Below are positions 23,155 through 32,918 of a stretch of 64,000 bases of DNA, piece after piece. Where the stretch lies: NCBI RefSeq assembly GCF_001677475.2, contig NZ_CP015229.1; one strand, 5' to 3'. The notes beneath the pieces are model-generated. The model was not told the DNA's origin, made no database searches, and saw nothing but the letters and a program-made list of their open reading frames with translations. This stretch comes from Escherichia coli. GTDB lineage: Bacteria > Pseudomonadota > Gammaproteobacteria > Enterobacterales > Enterobacteriaceae. Made by a program: the position numbers and the translations under genes. How positions within the stretch are numbered: the first letter of the stretch is position 1; the number at the start of each line of letters is the position of its first letter.

Positions 23155-25257
23155 TTGTTTCCCCCGATGTGGCGCAGACTGATTTATCACCCCGATATCA
23201 ACTATGCACTGCGACAAACGCTGGTGCTATGTTTGCCCGTGGCCGTTGGGTTAATGCTTGGCGAATTGCGATTCGGTCTGCTCTTCTCCCTCGTTCCTGC
23301 CTGTTGCAATATTGCGGGCCTTGATACGCCTCATAAACGTTTTTTCAAACGCTTAATCATTGGTGCGTCGCTGTTTGCCACCTGTAGCTTACTGACACAG
23401 CTGCTACTGGCAAAAGATGTTCCCCTGCCCTTTTTGCTGACCGGATTAACGCTGGTACTTGGCGTCACTGCTGAGCTGGGGCCATTGCACGCAAAATTGC
23501 TTCCCGCATCCCTGCTCGCCGCCATTTTTACCCTCAGTCTGGCGGGATACATGCCGGTCTGGGAACCGTTGCTCATCTATGCGTTGGGCACTCTCTGGTA
23601 CGGATTGTTTAACTGGTTTTGGTTCTGGATCTGGCGCGAACAACCGCTGCGCGAGTCACTTAGCCTGCTGTACCGTGAACTGGCAGATTATTGTGAAGCC
23701 AAATACAGCCTGCTTACCCAGCACACCGACCCTGAAAAAGCGCTGCCGCCACTGCTGGTGCGCCAGCAAAAAGCGGTCGATCTAATTACCCAGTGCTATC
23801 AGCAAATGCATATGCTTTCCGCGCAAAATAATACTGACTACAAGCGGATGCTGCGTATTTTCCAGGAGGCGCTGGATTTACAGGAACATATTTCGGTCAG
23901 TTTGCATCAGCCGGAAGAGGTGCAAAAGCTGGTCGAGCGTAGCCATGCGGAAGAAGTTATCCGCTGGAATGCGCAAACCGTCGCCGCTCGCCTGCGCGTG
24001 CTGGCTGATGACATTCTTTACCATCGCCTGCCAACGCGTTTTACGATGGAAAAGCAAATTGGCGCGCTGGAAAAAATCGCCCGCCAGCATCCGGATAATC
24101 CGGTTGGGCAATTCTGCTACTGGCATTTCAGCCGCATCGCCCGCGTGCTGCGCACCCAAAAACCGCTCTATGCCCGTGACTTACTGGCCGATAAACAGCG
24201 GCGAATGCCATTACTTCCGGCGCTGAAAAGTTATCTGTCACTAAAGTCTCCGGCGCTACGCAATGCCGGACGACTCAGTGTGATGTTAAGCGTTGCCAGC
24301 CTGATGGGCACCGCGCTGCATCTGCCGAAGTCGTACTGGATCCTGATGACGGTATTGCTGGTGACGCAAAATGGCTATGGCGCAACCCGTCTGAGGATTG
24401 TGAATCGCTCCGTGGGAACCGTGGTCGGGTTAATCATTGCGGGCGTTGCCCTGCACTTTAAAATTCCCGAAGGTTACACCCTGACCTTGATGCTGATTAC
24501 CACCCTCGCCAGCTACCTGATATTGCGCAAAAACTACGGCTGGGCGACGGTCGGCTTTACCATTACCGCAGTGTATACCCTGCAACTGTTGTGGCTGAAC
24601 GGTGAGCAGTACATCCTTCCGCGTCTTATCGATACCATTATTGGCTGTTTAATTGCTTTCGGCGGTACCGTCTGGCTGTGGCCACAGTGGCAGAGCGGGT
24701 TATTGCGTAAAAACGCCCATGATGCTTTAGAAGCCTATCAGGAAGCGATTCGCTTGATTCTGAGCGAGGACCCGCAACCAACGCCACTGGCCTGGCAGAG
24801 AATGCGGGTAAATCAGGCGCATAACACTCTGTATAACTCATTGAATCAGGCGATGCAGGAACCGGCATTCAACAGCCATTATCTGGCAGATATGAAACTG
24901 TGGGTAACGCACAGTCAGTTTATTGTTGAACATATTAATGCCATGACCACGCTGGCACGGGAACACCGGGCATTGCCACCTGAACTGGCACAAGAGTATT
25001 TACAGTCTTGTGAAATCGCCATTCAGCGTTGTCAGCAGCGACTGGAGTATGACGAACCGGGGAGTTCTGGCGATGCCAATATCATGGATGCGCCGGAGAT
25101 GCAGCCGCACGAAGGCGCGGCAGGTACGCTGGAGCAGCATTTACAACGGGTTATTGGTCATCTGAACACCATGCACACCATTTCGTCGATGGCATGGCGG
25201 CAGCGACCGCATCACGGGATTTGGCTGAGTCGCAAGTTGCGGGATTCGAAGGCGTAA
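23155..25257 (+). CDS. yhfK: Large inner-membrane protein of unknown function (FUSC-like)
   Basis: 700-aa ORF with two hydrophobic multi-helix blocks separated by soluble domain. Confidence 0.85.
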   Translation: MFPPMWRRLIYHPDINYALRQTLVLCLPVAVGLMLGELRFGLLFSLVPACCNIAGLDTPHKRFFKRLIIGASLFATCSLLTQLLLAKDVPLPFLLTGLTLVLGVTAELGPLHAKLLPASLLAAIFTLSLAGYMPVWEPLLIYALGTLWYGLFNWFWFWIWREQPLRESLSLLYRELADYCEAKYSLLTQHTDPEKALPPLLVRQQKAVDLITQCYQQMHMLSAQNNTDYKRMLRIFQEALDLQEHISVSLHQPEEVQKLVERSHAEEVIRWNAQTVAARLRVLADDILYHRLPTRFTMEKQIGALEKIARQHPDNPVGQFCYWHFSRIARVLRTQKPLYARDLLADKQRRMPLLPALKSYLSLKSPALRNAGRLSVMLSVASLMGTALHLPKSYWILMTVLLVTQNGYGATRLRIVNRSVGTVVGLIIAGVALHFKIPEGYTLTLMLITTLASYLILRKNYGWATVGFTITAVYTLQLLWLNGEQYILPRLIDTIIGCLIAFGGTVWLWPQWQSGLLRKNAHDALEAYQEAIRLILSEDPQPTPLAWQRMRVNQAHNTLYNSLNQAMQEPAFNSHYLADMKLWVTHSQFIVEHINAMTTLAREHRALPPELAQEYLQSCEIAIQRCQQRLEYDEPGSSGDANIMDAPEMQPHEGAAGTLEQHLQRVIGHLNTMHTISSMAWRQRPHHGIWLSRKLRDSKA

Positions 25258-25323
25258 TACAGGCTAAACCATCGGATGAGGTGTTCACGCCGCATCCGAC
25301 ATCTTTTGCCTGATGCGTCTTAT

Positions 25324-26559
<1,236 letters not shown>

Positions 26560-26574
26560 TTACGCATAAACCAA

Positions 26575-26615
26575 TATGAAATTATAATCACAAAATATGC
26601 ATAAAAAATCACTGA
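26575..26615 (-). promoter_or_regulatory. Possible ArgR operator (ARG box-like AT-rich imperfect palindromes) in argD promoter
   Basis: Minus-strand tgattataatttcata and attcagtgattttttatgcat resemble TGAAT-N4-ATTCA arrangement; weak. Confidence 0.3.
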
Positions 26616-26629
26616 ATGGCAATCAGAAA

Positions 26630-27193
26630 TCAGCGATGCAGGAAATTAGCCAGCAGTTGATGTCCTTGTTCGCTAAGAATACTTTCTGGATGGAACTGCA
26701 CGCCTTCAAGATCCCACTGGCGATGGCGAATCCCCATAATCTCGCGGGTTTCGCTCCAGGCCGTCACTTCAAAGCACGCTGGTAATGAGTCAGGTTCCAC
26801 CACCAGCGAATGGTAGCGTGTCACGGTAAGTGGATTTGCCAGCCCCCGAAATACGCCCTCACCGCTATGTGTAATCGGTGAGGTTTTGCCGTGCATGACC
26901 TTTGCGGCGCGCACAACTTTGCCGCCAAATGCCTGCGCCATTGCCTGATGACCGAGGCAGACGCCAAGAAGCGGCAAGCGTCCGGCATAGTGACGAATAG
27001 TCTCAAGGGAGATCCCGGCTTCATTGGGCGTACAGGGGCCAGGTGAGATGACAATTTTCTGCGGTTTAAGGGCGTCGATATCCGCCAGCGTCAACGCATC
27101 GTTGCGCTTAACCAGCACATCCGCCCCCAGTTCACAAAAGTACTGGTAGAGGTTCCAGGTGAAAGAATCGTAGTTATCAATAAGCAGGATCAT
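26630..27193 (-). CDS. pabA: Aminodeoxychorismate synthase glutamine amidotransferase component
   Basis: 187-aa class-I GATase [29 protein letters not shown]...GVCLGHQ. Confidence 0.95.
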
Positions 27194-27224
27194 GGCGGCT
27201 CCGGTACGAAAGAACCGCGCTATT

Positions 27225-27827
27225 TTACTCAGATTCCCCGGCTTCGCTTACCACTTTGCTAAATATCGTCTGCAGCGCGGTGAGATCCCCCATTGCCCCA
27301 CTCTGATTTGCCTGATTCCAGGCCTCTTTTTCGATACCCTGCCAGCTCAGTTGGTAGCCCGCATGAATCGCCAGCTGCTCGAAGAAGATCCGCTGTGCCA
27401 GACCACTTCCCACCCGGAAGGGATGCAGCACGTTGATTTCACAATAGTAATGTGCCAGCCGCTCGACGAACTTCCCTTTCTCCAGGCCAACCAGATAACC
27501 TTCTTCCTCCAGATCCTGCATCAGGGCATTGCCCTCTTTTTCGATATAAGCAAAGTGGCAGAACGGCGTATCGCCCTGATAAATATCAACTTCACGCAGT
27601 TGCCCTGCCCAGTCGAAAATATCCTGATACAGCTGGCGATGGATAGTGCGCAAATGCGGTAAACCGCGCACCAGCGGACCAAGCTCAATGGTCGCAGCAC
27701 GCAGCGCCGTCATTTCGTAAGCGGCCTGTTCCAGCCGCTGTTGCTGGCGGATGTTCAGCCGGTTACGCATGATATCAAGGCCAGGATAAAGATACGGATC
27801 GCGCCCTTCGCCGAATTTATCGCTCAT
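27225..27827 (-). CDS. fic: Fic-family protein with non-canonical active-site motif (cell filamentation protein Fic)
   Basis: 200-aa ORF; motif [12 protein letters not shown] in place of canonical HxFx(D/E)GNGRxxR. Confidence 0.92.
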
Positions 27828-27984
27828 AGTGCCTCCTCAGCTCTTCAAGGCGCGCTAAAGCCTCTGCGGCAGTAAGAGTGACTAAAGGCATCTCGACGCC
27901 TTCAAGACGGCGACTGGCCTGGAAATTACGATTACGCTGAAGCTCCCAGAGACGGGACTTTTGCTTATCGGTGAGTTTCTTCAC
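27817..27984 (-). CDS. yhfG: Small Fic-associated protein YhfG (55 aa, GTG start) carrying SxxxEG inhibitory-helix-like motif
   Basis: Hand-translated: [55 protein letters not shown]; stop overlaps fic start by 11 nt; not in ORF track because under 60 aa. Confidence 0.8.
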
Positions 27985-28088
27985 TTGATGCCTCCCTGAA
28001 CGTGTCCATTTGCCACAAGTATAAGCGGCAAATCCGGGTTACGCCGGGAGAGCAGAAGCGCGGGCAAGATTGCCCGCGCGAGAAATCA

Positions 28089-28670
<582 letters not shown>

Positions 28671-28931
28671 TTAACAAACAGAGCAGAAAAAAAGCAAGTG
28701 AAGAGATTCTAAATAGCCTTCAAGAACAAGGCCATCCCTTTACCTAATTTTACGTATCTGAAATATATGTAACCTGACGATCACTTTTTATTCCGTGATC
28801 AAAATCACCTCTTAAAATGCAATTTAGCAACCGATTGCAATAAAACATTTAAACAGATCACAAAATCACCTAAAATCGCCCGCTCGCGGCATATCCCGCT
28901 ATGCCATTTTATTTTTGAACGCAGGCCAATC

Positions 28932-30113
28932 ATGACTAACAGCAATCGCATCAAGCTCACATGGATTAGCTTTCTCTCCTACGCACTGACCGGTGCGTTG
29001 GTTATTGTCACCGGGATGGTGATGGGAAATATCGCCGATTATTTCAATCTGCCTGTTTCCAGTATGAGTAACACCTTCACCTTCCTCAACGCCGGCATTT
29101 TAATCTCTATCTTCCTCAACGCCTGGCTGATGGAAATCGTCCCGTTGAAAACGCAGTTACGTTTTGGCTTTCTCCTGATGGTGCTGGCGGTTGCCGGTTT
29201 GATGTTCAGCCACAGCCTGGCGCTGTTCTCGGCGGCGATGTTCATTCTCGGGGTGGTCAGCGGCATCACCATGTCGATTGGTACATTCCTGATAACACAA
29301 ATGTATGAAGGGCGTCAGCGCGGTTCCCGCCTGTTATTTACCGACTCCTTCTTCAGTATGGCTGGGATGATTTTCCCAATGATCGCCGCGTTTCTACTGG
29401 CGCGCAGCATTGAGTGGTACTGGGTTTATGCCTGCATCGGGTTGGTGTATGTCGCTATTTTTATTCTGACCTTCGGCTGTGAGTTCCCGGCGCTGGGCAA
29501 ACATGCGCCAAAAACGGATGCTCCGGTAGAGAAAGAAAAGTGGGGGATCGGCGTACTGTTTCTCTCTATTGCGGCGCTGTGCTACATCCTCGGTCAGTTA
29601 GGTTTTATCTCCTGGGTGCCTGAGTATGCCAAAGGCCTGGGCATGAGCCTAAACGACGCGGGCACGCTGGTAAGTAACTTCTGGATGTCATACATGGTCG
29701 GTATGTGGGCGTTCAGCTTTATTCTTCGCTTCTTTGATTTGCAACGTATTCTGACCGTACTGGCTGGTCTGGCTGCGATTCTGATGTACGTCTTTAACAC
29801 CGGAACACCAGCACATATGGCGTGGTCAATTCTCGCTCTGGGCTTCTTCTCCAGCGCGATCTATACCACCATCATCACCCTGGGTTCACAGCAGACCAAA
29901 GTACCGTCGCCAAAACTGGTTAACTTTGTCCTGACCTGCGGGACCATCGGTACTATGTTGACCTTTGTGGTTACCGGCCCGATTGTTGAACATAGCGGTC
30001 CGCAGGCGGCACTGCTTACAGCAAACGGTCTGTACGCTGTCGTCTTTGTGATGTGCTTCCTGTTAGGTTTCGTCAGCCGTCACCGTCAGCATAACACCCT
30101 GACCTCTCATTAA
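28932..30113 (+). CDS. tsgA: MFS-type membrane transporter TsgA
   Basis: 393-aa 12-TM-like [24 protein letters not shown]. Confidence 0.9.
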
Positions 30114-30273
30114 TTGTTCATGCCGGGCGGCACTATCGTCGTCCGGCCTTTTCCTCTCTTACCCTGCTACGTACATCTATTTCTATAAATCCGTTCAATT
30201 TGTCTGTTTTTTGCACAAACATGAAATGTCAGACAATTCCGTGACTTAAGAAAATTTATACAAATCAGCAATA

Positions 30274-30289
30274 TACCCCTTAAGGAGTA
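30274..30289 (+). promoter_or_regulatory. NarL/NarP 7-2-7 inverted heptamer site of nirB promoter (TACCCCT-TA-AGGAGTA)
   Basis: Read directly; centred ~27 bp upstream of FNR site as in the described pnir architecture. Confidence 0.75.
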
Positions 30290-30302
30290 TATAAAGGTGA
30301 AT

Positions 30303-30316
30303 TTGATTTACATCAA
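30303..30316 (+). promoter_or_regulatory. FNR binding site (TTGAT-TTAC-ATCAA) of nirB promoter
   Basis: Perfect FNR consensus; -10 hexamer TAAGGT at 30338-30343 places site near -41.5. Confidence 0.9.
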
Positions 30317-30374
30317 TAAGCGGGGTTGCTGAATCGTTAAGGTAGGCGGTAATAGAAAAGAAATCGAGGCAAAA

Positions 30375-32918
30375 ATGAGCAAAGTCAGACTCGCAATTAT
30401 CGGTAACGGTATGGTCGGCCATCGCTTTATCGAAGATCTTCTTGATAAATCTGATGCGGCCAACTTTGATATTACCGTTTTCTGTGAAGAACCGCGCATC
30501 GCTTATGACCGCGTACACCTCTCGTCTTACTTCTCTCACCACACCGCCGAAGAGCTGTCGCTGGTGCGCGAAGGCTTCTACGAGAAACACGGCATCAAAG
30601 TTCTGGTCGGCGAACGCGCTATCACCATCAACCGTCAGGAGAAGGTGATTCACTCCAGCGCCGGGCGCACCGTTTTTTATGACAAGCTGATCATGGCGAC
30701 CGGTTCCTACCCGTGGATCCCGCCAATCAAAGGTTCTGATACTCAGGACTGCTTTGTCTATCGCACCATTGAAGACCTCAACGCCATTGAATCCTGTGCC
30801 CGTCGCAGCAAACGCGGTGCCGTTGTTGGTGGCGGCCTGTTAGGTCTGGAAGCCGCTGGCGCGCTGAAAAACTTAGGCATTGAAACCCACGTTATCGAAT
30901 TTGCCCCTATGCTGATGGCGGAACAGCTTGATCAGATGGGCGGCGAGCAGCTACGTCGCAAAATCGAAAGTATGGGTGTGCGCGTTCACACCAGCAAAAA
31001 CACCCTTGAGATTGTGCAGGAAGGTGTCGAAGCGCGTAAAACCATGCGTTTTGCCGACGGCAGCGAGCTGGAAGTTGACTTTATCGTCTTCTCTACCGGT
31101 ATCCGTCCGCGCGATAAGCTGGCAACCCAGTGTGGTCTGGACGTTGCTCCGCGTGGGGGTATTGTCATTAATGATTCCTGCCAGACTTCCGATCCGGATA
31201 TCTACGCCATCGGTGAATGCGCAAGCTGGAACAACCGTGTATTTGGTCTGGTAGCACCAGGCTACAAAATGGCGCAGGTCGCCGTTGACCACATTCTCGG
31301 TAGCGAAAACGCCTTTGAAGGTGCTGACCTTAGCGCCAAGCTGAAACTGCTGGGCGTAGACGTAGGTGGTATTGGTGATGCGCATGGTCGCACGCCTGGC
31401 GCACGTAGCTACGTTTACCTCGACGAAAGCAAAGAGATCTACAAACGCCTGATTGTCAGCGAAGACAACAAAACCCTGCTCGGTGCGGTACTGGTGGGCG
31501 ATACCAGCGACTACGGCAACCTGCTGCAACTGGTGCTGAACGCTATCGAGCTGCCGGAAAACCCGGATTCTCTGATTCTGCCGGCGCACTCTGGTAGCGG
31601 TAAGCCGTCTATCGGTGTTGATAAACTGCCGGACAGCGCGCAAATCTGCTCCTGCTTCGACGTCACCAAAGGTGATCTGATTGCTGCCATCAACAAAGGC
31701 TGCCACACCGTTGCGGCGCTGAAAGCCGAAACCAAAGCGGGTACTGGCTGCGGTGGCTGTATCCCGCTGGTCACTCAGGTACTGAACGCGGAACTGGCGA
31801 AACAGGGCATCGAAGTTAACAACAACCTGTGCGAACACTTTGCTTATTCGCGTCAGGAACTGTTCCATTTAATCCGCGTTGAAGGCATTAAAACCTTCGA
31901 AGAACTGCTGGCGAAACACGGCAAAGGCTACGGTTGTGAAGTTTGTAAACCGACCGTCGGTTCGCTGCTGGCCTCCTGCTGGAACGAATACATTCTGAAA
32001 CCGGAACATACTCCGCTGCAGGATTCTAACGATAACTTCCTCGCTAACATCCAGAAAGACGGCACCTACTCGGTGATCCCGCGTTCTCCGGGCGGTGAAA
32101 TCACCCCGGAAGGGCTGATGGCGGTAGGTCGTATCGCGCGTGAATTTAATCTCTACACCAAAATCACCGGCTCCCAGCGCCTGGCGATGTTTGGCGCACA
32201 GAAAGACGATCTGCCGGAGATCTGGCGTCAGCTGATTGAAGCCGGCTTCGAAACCGGTCATGCCTATGCGAAAGCACTGCGTATGGCGAAAACCTGCGTG
32301 GGTAGCACCTGGTGCCGCTACGGCGTTGGCGACAGCGTCGGCCTCGGCGTGGAACTGGAAAACCGCTACAAAGGCATCCGTACGCCGCACAAAATGAAGT
32401 TCGGTGTCTCCGGCTGTACCCGTGAATGTTCAGAAGCTCAGGGTAAAGACGTAGGTATTATCGCCACCGAAAAAGGCTGGAACCTGTACGTTTGCGGTAA
32501 CGGCGGCATGAAACCGCGTCATGCAGATCTGCTTGCAGCGGATATCGATCGCGAAACGCTGATCAAATATCTCGACCGCTTCATGATGTTCTACATCCGT
32601 ACCGCCGACAAACTGACGCGTACCGCGCCGTGGTTAGAAAACCTTGAAGGCGGCATCGATTACCTGAAAGCGGTGATCATTGACGACAAACTGGGGCTGA
32701 ACGCACATCTGGAAGAAGAGATGGCGCGCCTGCGTGAAGCGGTAGTATGTGAGTGGACTGAAACGGTCAATACACCGTCCGCGCAGACTCGCTTCAAACA
32801 CTTCATCAACAGCGACAAGCGTGACCCGAACGTGCAGATGGTGCCAGAGCGCGAACAGCACCGTCCGGCAACGCCGTATGAACGTATCCCGGTAACTCTG
32901 GTGGAGGACAACGCATGA
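30375..32918 (+). CDS. nirB: NADH-dependent nitrite reductase large subunit
   Basis: 847-aa ORF MSKVRLAIIGNGMVGHRFIEDLL; FAD/NAD Rossmann motifs, BFD-like 2Fe-2S Cys cluster, sirohaem/4Fe-4S domain. Confidence 0.97.
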   Translation: MSKVRLAIIGNGMVGHRFIEDLLDKSDAANFDITVFCEEPRIAYDRVHLSSYFSHHTAEELSLVREGFYEKHGIKVLVGERAITINRQEKVIHSSAGRTVFYDKLIMATGSYPWIPPIKGSDTQDCFVYRTIEDLNAIESCARRSKRGAVVGGGLLGLEAAGALKNLGIETHVIEFAPMLMAEQLDQMGGEQLRRKIESMGVRVHTSKNTLEIVQEGVEARKTMRFADGSELEVDFIVFSTGIRPRDKLATQCGLDVAPRGGIVINDSCQTSDPDIYAIGECASWNNRVFGLVAPGYKMAQVAVDHILGSENAFEGADLSAKLKLLGVDVGGIGDAHGRTPGARSYVYLDESKEIYKRLIVSEDNKTLLGAVLVGDTSDYGNLLQLVLNAIELPENPDSLILPAHSGSGKPSIGVDKLPDSAQICSCFDVTKGDLIAAINKGCHTVAALKAETKAGTGCGGCIPLVTQVLNAELAKQGIEVNNNLCEHFAYSRQELFHLIRVEGIKTFEELLAKHGKGYGCEVCKPTVGSLLASCWNEYILKPEHTPLQDSNDNFLANIQKDGTYSVIPRSPGGEITPEGLMAVGRIAREFNLYTKITGSQRLAMFGAQKDDLPEIWRQLIEAGFETGHAYAKALRMAKTCVGSTWCRYGVGDSVGLGVELENRYKGIRTPHKMKFGVSGCTRECSEAQGKDVGIIATEKGWNLYVCGNGGMKPRHADLLAADIDRETLIKYLDRFMMFYIRTADKLTRTAPWLENLEGGIDYLKAVIIDDKLGLNAHLEEEMARLREAVVCEWTETVNTPSAQTRFKHFINSDKRDPNVQMVPEREQHRPATPYERIPVTLVEDNA

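Follow-up and report, generated by a model that had tools for sequence, protein, structure and literature searches.

Fic of Escherichia coli is the founding member of the Fic family. Its K-12 form was described together with the product of the small gene yhfG by Stanger, Harms, Dehio and Schirmer (PLoS One 2016; PMC5033356; PDB: 5JFF, 5JFZ), who renamed the two genes ecficT and ecficA. In these structures the SRRLEG sequence of EcFicA, a canonical [S/T]xxxE[G/N] inhibition motif, protrudes into the Fic active site; YhfG wraps around Fic, its S24 and E28 both contact R146 of the partner, in the case of Glu28 by a salt bridge, and a further bond joins R25 to T40. Stable 1:1 complexes were obtained with the wild-type and with every mutant pair, and the interface measures 1641 Å2. 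The wild-type complex melted at a Tm of 63 °C, and the E28G exchange lowered the melting temperature by 10 °C. Neither auto- nor target-adenylylation by EcFicT was detected, even when the inhibition motif was mutated. The authors regarded ATP binding as unlikely with a leucine in place of R1 and a hydrophobic residue in place of the acid, described clade-specific residues that line an extended pocket beside the signature loop for 'a yet unidentified substrate', and judged a new substrate to be likely. The fic knock-out was viable like the wild type, and E. albertii TW07627 was found to carry a stop codon in yhfG and to have kept fic. Close homologues were found only in Enterobacteriaceae, between ppiA and pabA, and this position and confinement point to vertical descent (PMC5033356). 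A paper of June 2026 (PMC13327609) states that the mechanism of EcFicT 'remains elusive'.

The closest characterised enzyme is Fic-1 of Pseudomonas bijieensis 2P24 with its partner AntF (PDB: 8WT0; PMC13327609). As in E. coli, the partner is small, is encoded upstream and locks R146 with S24 and E28. Fic-1 differs in having the canonical HPFREGNGRAQR motif; it AMPylates GyrB at Tyr111, and its complex with AntF is a deAMPylase. The prototype of the class I FicTA systems is VbhT/VbhA of Bartonella schoenbuchensis (PDB: 3SHG, 3ZC7, 3ZCB), which shows the same Glu-to-R2 inhibition geometry. The fold of VbhT is that of EcFicT, with a reported rmsd of 1.36 Å over 187 C-alpha atoms, whereas the antitoxins differ: VbhA has three helices, and YhfG has two, with an 8-residue deletion relative to VbhA (PMC5033356). 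Altered Fic motifs are also known from Doc, an EF-Tu kinase, and AnkX, a phosphocholine transferase, which use another donor or chemistry and have kept the catalytic His (PMC5033356). Their motif changes differ from those of E. coli Fic, and both retain basic residues that bind the donor phosphate; the likeness is a functional analogy and not one of family membership.

The window analysed here, meaning the whole stretch of DNA of 64,000 nucleotides, contains a yhfG-fic pair with the following features:

26630-27193, minus strand: pabA, glutamine amidotransferase subunit of aminodeoxychorismate synthase, located downstream in the same cluster (open reading frame list and annotation; PF00117 in orthologous loci)
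27194-27224, minus strand: spacer of 31 nt between fic and pabA, with GGAG ahead of the pabA ATG and no terminator-like site (sequence)
27225-27827, minus strand: fic (ecficT), ATG start, 200 aa, class I Fic-domain protein (open reading frame list and sequence)
27390-27425, minus strand: codons of the Fic signature loop, H135 to R146, derived and non-canonical (motif check)
27817-27984, minus strand: yhfG (ecficA), GTG start, 55 aa, class I Fic antitoxin homologue (open reading frame list and sequence)
27832-27838, minus strand: Shine-Dalgarno sequence of fic, GAGGAGG, within the 3' end of yhfG and 4 nt 5' of the ATG (sequence)
27898-27915, minus strand: codons S24-R25-R26-L27-E28-G29, the [S/T]xxxE[G/N] inhibitory-helix motif of YhfG (motif check)
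27991-27996, minus strand: Shine-Dalgarno sequence of yhfG, GGGAGG, 6 nt 5' of the GTG, invariant in four genera (sequence)
28010-28031, minus strand: promoter core of yhfG-fic(-pabA) with a -10-like TATACT at 28018-28023 and an inferred start near 28012 (four-genus conservation)
28058-28079, minus strand: GC-rich 9-bp hairpin directly 3' of the ppiA stop, terminator-like with a weak U tail (RNA fold)

It is virtually certain that this locus represents the yhfG-fic (ecficA-ecficT) module which E. coli, or an organism very closely related to it, carries on its chromosome. The fic product matched the Fic family (Pfam: PF02661) over residues 58-152 with 51.1 bits (cut-off 24), and the yhfG product matched the YhfG family (Pfam: PF10832) with 85.9 bits (cut-off 22.6; E 1.6e-24). 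Searches against NCBIfam equivalogs gave 427.6 bits for Fic with NF007672, 'putative adenosine monophosphate-protein transferase Fic', covering positions 1-200 of 200 (cut-off 181), and 128.4 bits for YhfG with NF007573 (cut-off 77). The PDB sequences matched were 5JFZ_A and 5JFF_A for Fic (E about 1e-132) and 5JFF_B and 5JFZ_B for YhfG (about 1e-30), from entries entitled 'Probable adenosine monophosphate-protein transferase fic' and 'Uncharacterized protein YhfG'. By its equivalog score and its position between ppiA and pabA, Fic falls into the EcFicT orthologous group. Individual comparison with E. coli K-12 revealed the natural differences R27H, G118A and T187M in Fic and R51S (R51 versus S51) in YhfG, none of them in the motif or pocket; the window and EcFicT/EcFicA represent the same system with allelic differences only. 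Both have the same signature loop, the same SRRLEG, all of the published clade-specific residues of pocket and flap, the same overlap and the same position between ppiA and pabA. Codon 55 of fic reads GGT (27663-27665) and encodes the wild-type Gly55, not the G55R exchange of the fic-1 allele; the crystallised EcFicT/EcFicA constructs carry G55R or E28G, whereas the window has G55 and E28.

The two genes overlap by 11 nt (27817-27827), with the yhfG stop at 27817-27819 and the fic ATG at 27827-27825. A 55-aa upstream gene with a GTG start and an 11-nt overlap had already been described in the initial annotation, with which our coordinates agree. The GTG start is backed by the GGGAGG sequence and by a GTG or ATG at the equal position in three other genera, and the RefSeq annotation of E. 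coli contains the same 168-nt yhfG coding sequence. The location of the fic Shine-Dalgarno sequence inside yhfG, together with the overlap, suggests that translation of the two genes may be coupled.

An open reading frame of 156 aa opposite fic (27192-27662, plus strand) was considered as a further gene. It was rejected because the frame is not conserved across Salmonella, Klebsiella and the window; it is a codon-aligned shadow frame, in which the antisense stops correspond to sense TTA, CTA and TCA codons, and its interruption lies at a different place in each of them (codon 154 in Salmonella, 42 in Klebsiella and 56 in the window). A scan of positions 24000-31000 on both strands with Rfam at gathering thresholds revealed no RNA family.

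Upstream of yhfG, the hairpin behind ppiA folded with -26.3 kcal/mol (z = -4.6), and none of 200 shuffled sequences folded equally well. Its GCGGG/CCCGC stem is kept in Salmonella, Klebsiella and Leclercia with a variable loop. The hairpin separates ppiA from the yhfG-fic promoter, the core of which is a block of 22 nt, TTGC(C/T)GCTTATACTTGTGGCAA, that is invariant bar one site across four genera in an alignment of five sequences. A scan with the sigma-70 consensus did not flag this promoter, which was found instead by its conservation across genera and by published primers. In the literature the fic promoter serves as a strictly Esigma38-dependent promoter (PMC3089606). The primers of that study map to 27914-27932 and 28173-28190 and its BanI site to 28165-28170, which gives a fragment of 256 bp (27914-28169), numbered -157 to +99, with +1 at about 28012; the paper prints '-99', which we took as +99, the sole value that fits 256 bp. 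This sigma-38 'fic promoter' maps upstream of yhfG. We infer a transcription start at about 28012, which would place TATACT at -11 to -6 and leave a leader of 28 nt ahead of the yhfG GTG. On the coding (minus) strand no terminator-like site was found between fic and pabA, and yhfG, fic and pabA could be read as one stationary-phase transcript; our statements on the operon and on coupling draw on the sequence layout and on a promoter fragment described in a single study. Older work (Tran et al. 1990; Utsumi et al. 1993; Komano et al. 1991) reportedly described this operon, its RpoS control and a link to pABA and folate. A search of the literature for the folate link of fic returned only a second-hand InterPro statement, and searches from 2016 onward on fic-pabA, on pabA with yhfG and on G55R Fic returned nothing on function beyond the 2016 paper.

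Alignment of the Fic loop with the canonical signature of AMPylating Fic proteins, HxFx[D/E]GNGRxxR, showed V139 in place of the acid, S141 in place of Asn and L143 in place of the first Arg, the three positions at which the initial annotation had called the motif degenerate. The remaining signature residues, namely the His, the Phe, the two Gly and the final Arg (R146), are kept, so that the loop HxFxxGxGxxxR of the Fic/DOC family, which lies between helices alpha4 and alpha5, is present. In the canonical signature the acid serves Mg2+ binding, and Asn and R1 bind the ATP phosphates. The 120 closest homologues (>=80% identity) all read H-P-F-R-[LIVF]-G-[SN]-G-[LMI]-x-Q-R, apart from a single sequence with R138C. 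A search of 1.84 billion cluster representatives gave a different picture at greater distance: among the matches listed, 121 representatives of 50% clusters had a recognisable loop, and 112 of these carried the canonical HPFR[E/D]GNGRxxR, all at <=48% identity to the query. The non-canonical loops among the listed representatives belonged almost all to fragments of the E. coli clade. Motif intermediates were sought among the representatives, and the range of 50-80% identity gave only fragments and error-ridden sequences, the enterobacterial clade forming about one 50% cluster. Since the 120 near homologues have the derived loop and the distant representatives the canonical one, the derived Fic motif is, on the evidence of these alignments, a clade character that arose from a canonical background.

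Further positions follow the same division. H135, G140, G142, R146, T40, G55, Y67, F71, E79, Y83, A178 and M179 were invariant in 114 of 114 full-length clade members and A36 was present in 111 of 114; R138 is included in the count of 113-114 of 114 obtained for H135, the anion-nest glycines, R138 and R146. The same columns in 112 relatives chosen for their canonical motif contain mostly E36, F67 and Y71. These clade invariants agree with the specificity positions published for EcFicT (PMC5033356). The losses at L143, V139 and S141, with the linked A36, Y67 and F71, argue that Fic is probably not an ATP-dependent AMPylase, a conclusion that draws on the published negative assays as well as on the sequence. 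The initial annotation had doubted that the altered motif supports AMPylation, and this doubt equals the published view, as no adenylylation was detected (PMC5033356).

The module belongs to the core genome of the species. All complete E. coli genomes but one (5425 of 5426) contained a match to its 2.1-kb region, in most cases with 95-99% identity, and the locus is chromosomal in all but one place; the RefSeq positions of pabA, fic, yhfG and ppiA coincide with those found here. The gene order tsgA-ppiA-yhfG-fic-pabA-argD is common to the window and four further loci. Salmonella, Klebsiella and Leclercia share the arrangement tsgA-ppiA-yhfG (55 aa)-fic (200 aa)-pabA-argD-yhfK and the identical 11-nt overlap, and the spacer between fic and pabA, 31-32 nt long, is largely conserved in four genera. 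Comparing the window with Salmonella, Klebsiella and Leclercia by the Nei-Gojobori method gave dN/dS ratios of 0.043-0.089 for fic and 0.046-0.092 for yhfG, next to 0.053-0.079 for pabA, 0.040-0.068 for argD and 0.024-0.039 for ppiA; dS, at 1.1-2.5, is saturated or nearly so, which makes these ratios rough estimates. Non-synonymous differences were far fewer than synonymous ones (pN 0.085-0.13 versus pS 0.6-0.72). By these measures neither fic nor yhfG is decaying, and both are under strong purifying selection like the neighbouring housekeeping genes.

The description of the pair as toxin-antitoxin-like in the initial annotation was borne out in its architecture. A small upstream gene, yhfG, encodes a [S/T]xxxE[G/N] helix and overlaps fic, which makes Fic a class I protein, and the layout is that of a type II toxin-antitoxin system, a two-gene operon with the antitoxin first and with direct binding according to the literature on near-identical proteins. 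The mobile and patchy distribution that is typical of toxin-antitoxin modules, though not strictly defining, was not observed for yhfG-fic, which is core-genome, syntenic and under purifying selection. In this respect the module, chromosomal and vertically inherited, differs from VbhT, which is a canonical plasmid-borne gyrase/topo IV AMPylase. A classical FicTA system, with free Fic AMPylating GyrB/ParE to arrest growth and YhfG neutralising it, is hard to reconcile with a module that is syntenic across genera, under housekeeping-like selection and not mobile, and we consider it highly improbable. The homology to VbhT and Fic-1 and the order of the overlapping genes, antitoxin first, would fit such a system, and two reviews, citing Harms 2015, credit EcFicT with AMPylation of gyrase/topo IV or with inhibition of growth. 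These listings conflict with the statement of the primary authors themselves that adenylylation by EcFicT could not be shown (PMC5033356). No member of the clade has the R1 that binds ATP or the acid that binds the metal, and Fic stayed below the NCBIfam cut-offs of the adenylyltransferase equivalogs VbhT (137.9 versus 800 bits) and NmFic (64.8 versus 230 bits). The retention of fic beside a broken yhfG in E. albertii TW07627 argues against strong toxicity.

In YhfG, S24-RRL-E28-G29 is the sole match to [ST]xxxE[GN]. The match by itself is weak evidence, because this pattern arises in 3.2% of shuffles of the YhfG composition. S24, L27, E28 and G29 were invariant in all four full-length orthologues compared, and SxxxEG is conserved in four genera. 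The inhibitory Glu and its R2 contact, YhfG E28 and Fic R146, are both present here, the contact being taken from the K-12 structures. The SxxxEG motif, noted as inhibitory-type in the initial annotation, occupies the active site in the crystallised complex (PMC5033356), and we are confident that YhfG plugs the active site of Fic. Most of the experiments suggested at the outset are already published: co-purification of YhfG with Fic gave stable 1:1 complexes, and assays for AMPylation detected none, whether the inhibition motif was intact or mutated (PMC5033356). The observation made from the sequence is correct but already published; the structures, the odd motif and the lack of AMPylation were all reported in 2016.

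A plugged active site could itself be the working form of the enzyme. The Fic-YhfG complex would then act like a deAMPylase, with Glu28 of YhfG as a catalytic residue, by analogy with Fic-1-AntF, which deAMPylates GyrB and requires AntF E28. Fic-1 aligned gap-free with Fic over 196 residues with 39% identity (E 1.1e-48), H135, R146 and the S24/E28 numbering of the partner are common to both, and Fic-1-AntF superposes on 5JFF with an RMSD of 0.9 Å; the E. coli complex is moreover very stable (Tm 63 °C) and its E28 is conserved. YhfG and AntF themselves gave no sequence match at E <= 1. We downgraded the deAMPylase reading because the acidic cleft has been replaced. Whereas H135 and YhfG E28 are present, E139, N141 and R143 of Fic-1 correspond to V, S and L in E. 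coli Fic and E29 and E36 to Q and A; the cleft, formed in Pseudomonas by Fic-1 E29, E36 and E139 with AntF E28, here consists of Q29, A36 and V139, and only the YhfG glutamate is left. With the metal-binding acid gone, no matching writer enzyme known at the locus and fic kept in E. albertii TW07627 without an intact yhfG (PMC5033356), an eraser function of the complex appears quite improbable.

The replacement of three motif positions that bind nucleotide or metal could also mean that Fic no longer catalyses any reaction. It would then be a binding or scaffold protein acting through its flap and surface patches, and YhfG would stabilise or occlude it and not inhibit any chemistry. No activity of Fic has been detected and no growth phenotype has been reported for the knock-out, both in keeping with a pseudoenzyme. 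Other Fic domains with altered motifs reportedly act non-catalytically, for example Bartonella BepC, which counts in the same direction. However, 113-114 of 114 clade members agree in His135, both anion-nest glycines, R138 and R146, the E28-R146 lock is conserved, which would be hard to explain for a lock on a dead site, and the clade-specific invariant residues line the extended pocket by the signature loop. We therefore regard a pseudoenzyme as rather unlikely. To our knowledge, a Fic variant with restored motif has not been reported.

A Fic that is still catalytic, gated by YhfG and using a donor other than ATP, is the most economical reading and the one towards which we lean, if only slightly, because strong purifying selection has left the catalytic His unchanged, along with the anion nest, R138, R146, the pocket and the lock.

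Some observations go against a Fic that is still catalytic. About 40 years have passed without any catalytic activity being shown, the knock-out is reportedly as viable as the wild type, and the conservation of His135 and of the pocket would equally fit a ligand-binding, non-catalytic role.

For the YhfG-gated enzyme with a donor other than ATP we propose the following course. Transcription would start at a promoter of the sigma-38 type, immediately behind the ppiA hairpin, and run through yhfG, then the overlapping fic and then pabA. YhfG binds Fic 1:1 and places the end of its S24xxxE28G29 helix in the active site, with Glu28 on Arg146, as the K-12 structures show. Fic itself descends from canonical AMP-transferring FicT toxins; L143 has taken the place of the arginine that binds ATP, V139 that of the acid that binds metal and S141 that of the Asn. 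It has kept His135 for catalysis, the anion nest of glycines, Arg138, Arg146 and the clade-invariant pocket and flap. Under the control of YhfG it may transfer a phosphate-containing group from a non-ATP donor onto some target. The module would on this proposal serve a vertically inherited housekeeping or regulatory function of the stationary phase and not act as a mobile toxin-antitoxin system.

A more novel reading is improbable but can be named. The pair would not be a toxin-antitoxin system at all but a two-subunit housekeeping enzyme under sigma-S control, with a Fic chemistry not described before, in which either a non-ATP donor is used or the Fic-YhfG complex is the active form. Its target would be tied to the co-transcribed pabA, to folate metabolism or to cell division. 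[quoted passage not shown]

As it stands, our finding restates a published puzzle from the sequence and gives no new handle on it, and its value as a discovery is low. The puzzle itself concerns the protein that gave its name to a family found across all life, human FICD included: the own activity of E. coli Fic is still a puzzle. To find the donor and the target of this protein would extend the Fic fold to a new chemistry and account for the filamentation phenotype first described.

Compared with the K-12 crystal constructs, the yhfG-fic pair of the window (27225-27984) shows allelic differences in both proteins: Fic carries three such residues, R27 (H in K-12), G118 (A) and T187 (M), and YhfG carries one, R51 (S). 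The window YhfG has the same sequence as that of elppa4, the E. coli strain that matched best and served as the source of annotation. Across the whole locus the highest identity among the complete E. coli genomes listed was 98.6%, and thus the window lineage is not identical to those listed. The nearby tsgA is intact in the window (28932-30113, + strand; 393 aa) and is annotated as a frameshifted pseudogene in elppa4 (L001:3833-5021).

The literature on the activity of E. coli Fic (EcFicT) is in conflict. In two reviews (PMC8097203, table 1; PMC10886550, section 4.2), which cite Harms 2015 as the source, EcFicT is credited with AMPylation of gyrase/topo IV or with strong inhibition of growth, whereas the authors of that work reported in 2016 that adenylylation by EcFicT could not be demonstrated (PMC5033356). 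The entries in the reviews are probably a generalisation from VbhT and YeFicT.

Single proteins comprising both YhfG and Fic were found among the gene calls of Logan E. coli assemblies (P0001, 252 aa; P0006, 233 aa), and each contains both the Pfam YhfG and the Pfam Fic domain. These fusions probably reflect indels or deletions at or close to the 11-nt overlap of the two genes, or sequencing errors. A lone ORF of 200 aa (P0122, L005:1011-1613) occupies the slot between ppiA and pabA in one divergent enterobacterial contig of 2717 nt (Logan ERR4228981). In this ORF the N-terminal ~27 residues of YhfG ('...FQASSRLD') run in frame into a Fic sequence that begins near residue 35, and the position equivalent to YhfG Glu28 is Asp. 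Its Fic motif, HPFFVGSGRAQR, retains the first Arg and has lost the acidic residue and the Asn. P0122 could represent a genuine deletion by which a class I pair became one class II-like chain; alternatively, the fusion could be an assembly artefact.

Coordinates of features in and next to fic:

27192-27662, + strand: ORF of 156 aa antisense to fic, a codon-aligned shadow frame of fic
27225-27284: last ~20 codons of fic, with raised third-position invariance across the four genera
27194-27224: fic-pabA spacer, taken together with the fic 3' end for the suggested nucleotide constraint

TTA, CTA and TCA codons are unusually scarce in fic (1, 1, 1 and 0 in the four genera, compared with 2-5 in neighbouring genes). 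The codons that break the antisense ORF sit at different positions in each genus, and the ORF is therefore not conserved. Over the last 15-20 codons of fic the third position is invariant in 47-60% of codons across the four genera, against ~7-30% in the bulk of the gene, yet amino acid invariance in the same codons is only ~53%. This pattern, seen in four sequences only, suggests constraint at the nucleotide level in the fic 3' end, which adjoins the start of pabA. A promoter or translation signal of pabA within fic would be one example of such a constraint.
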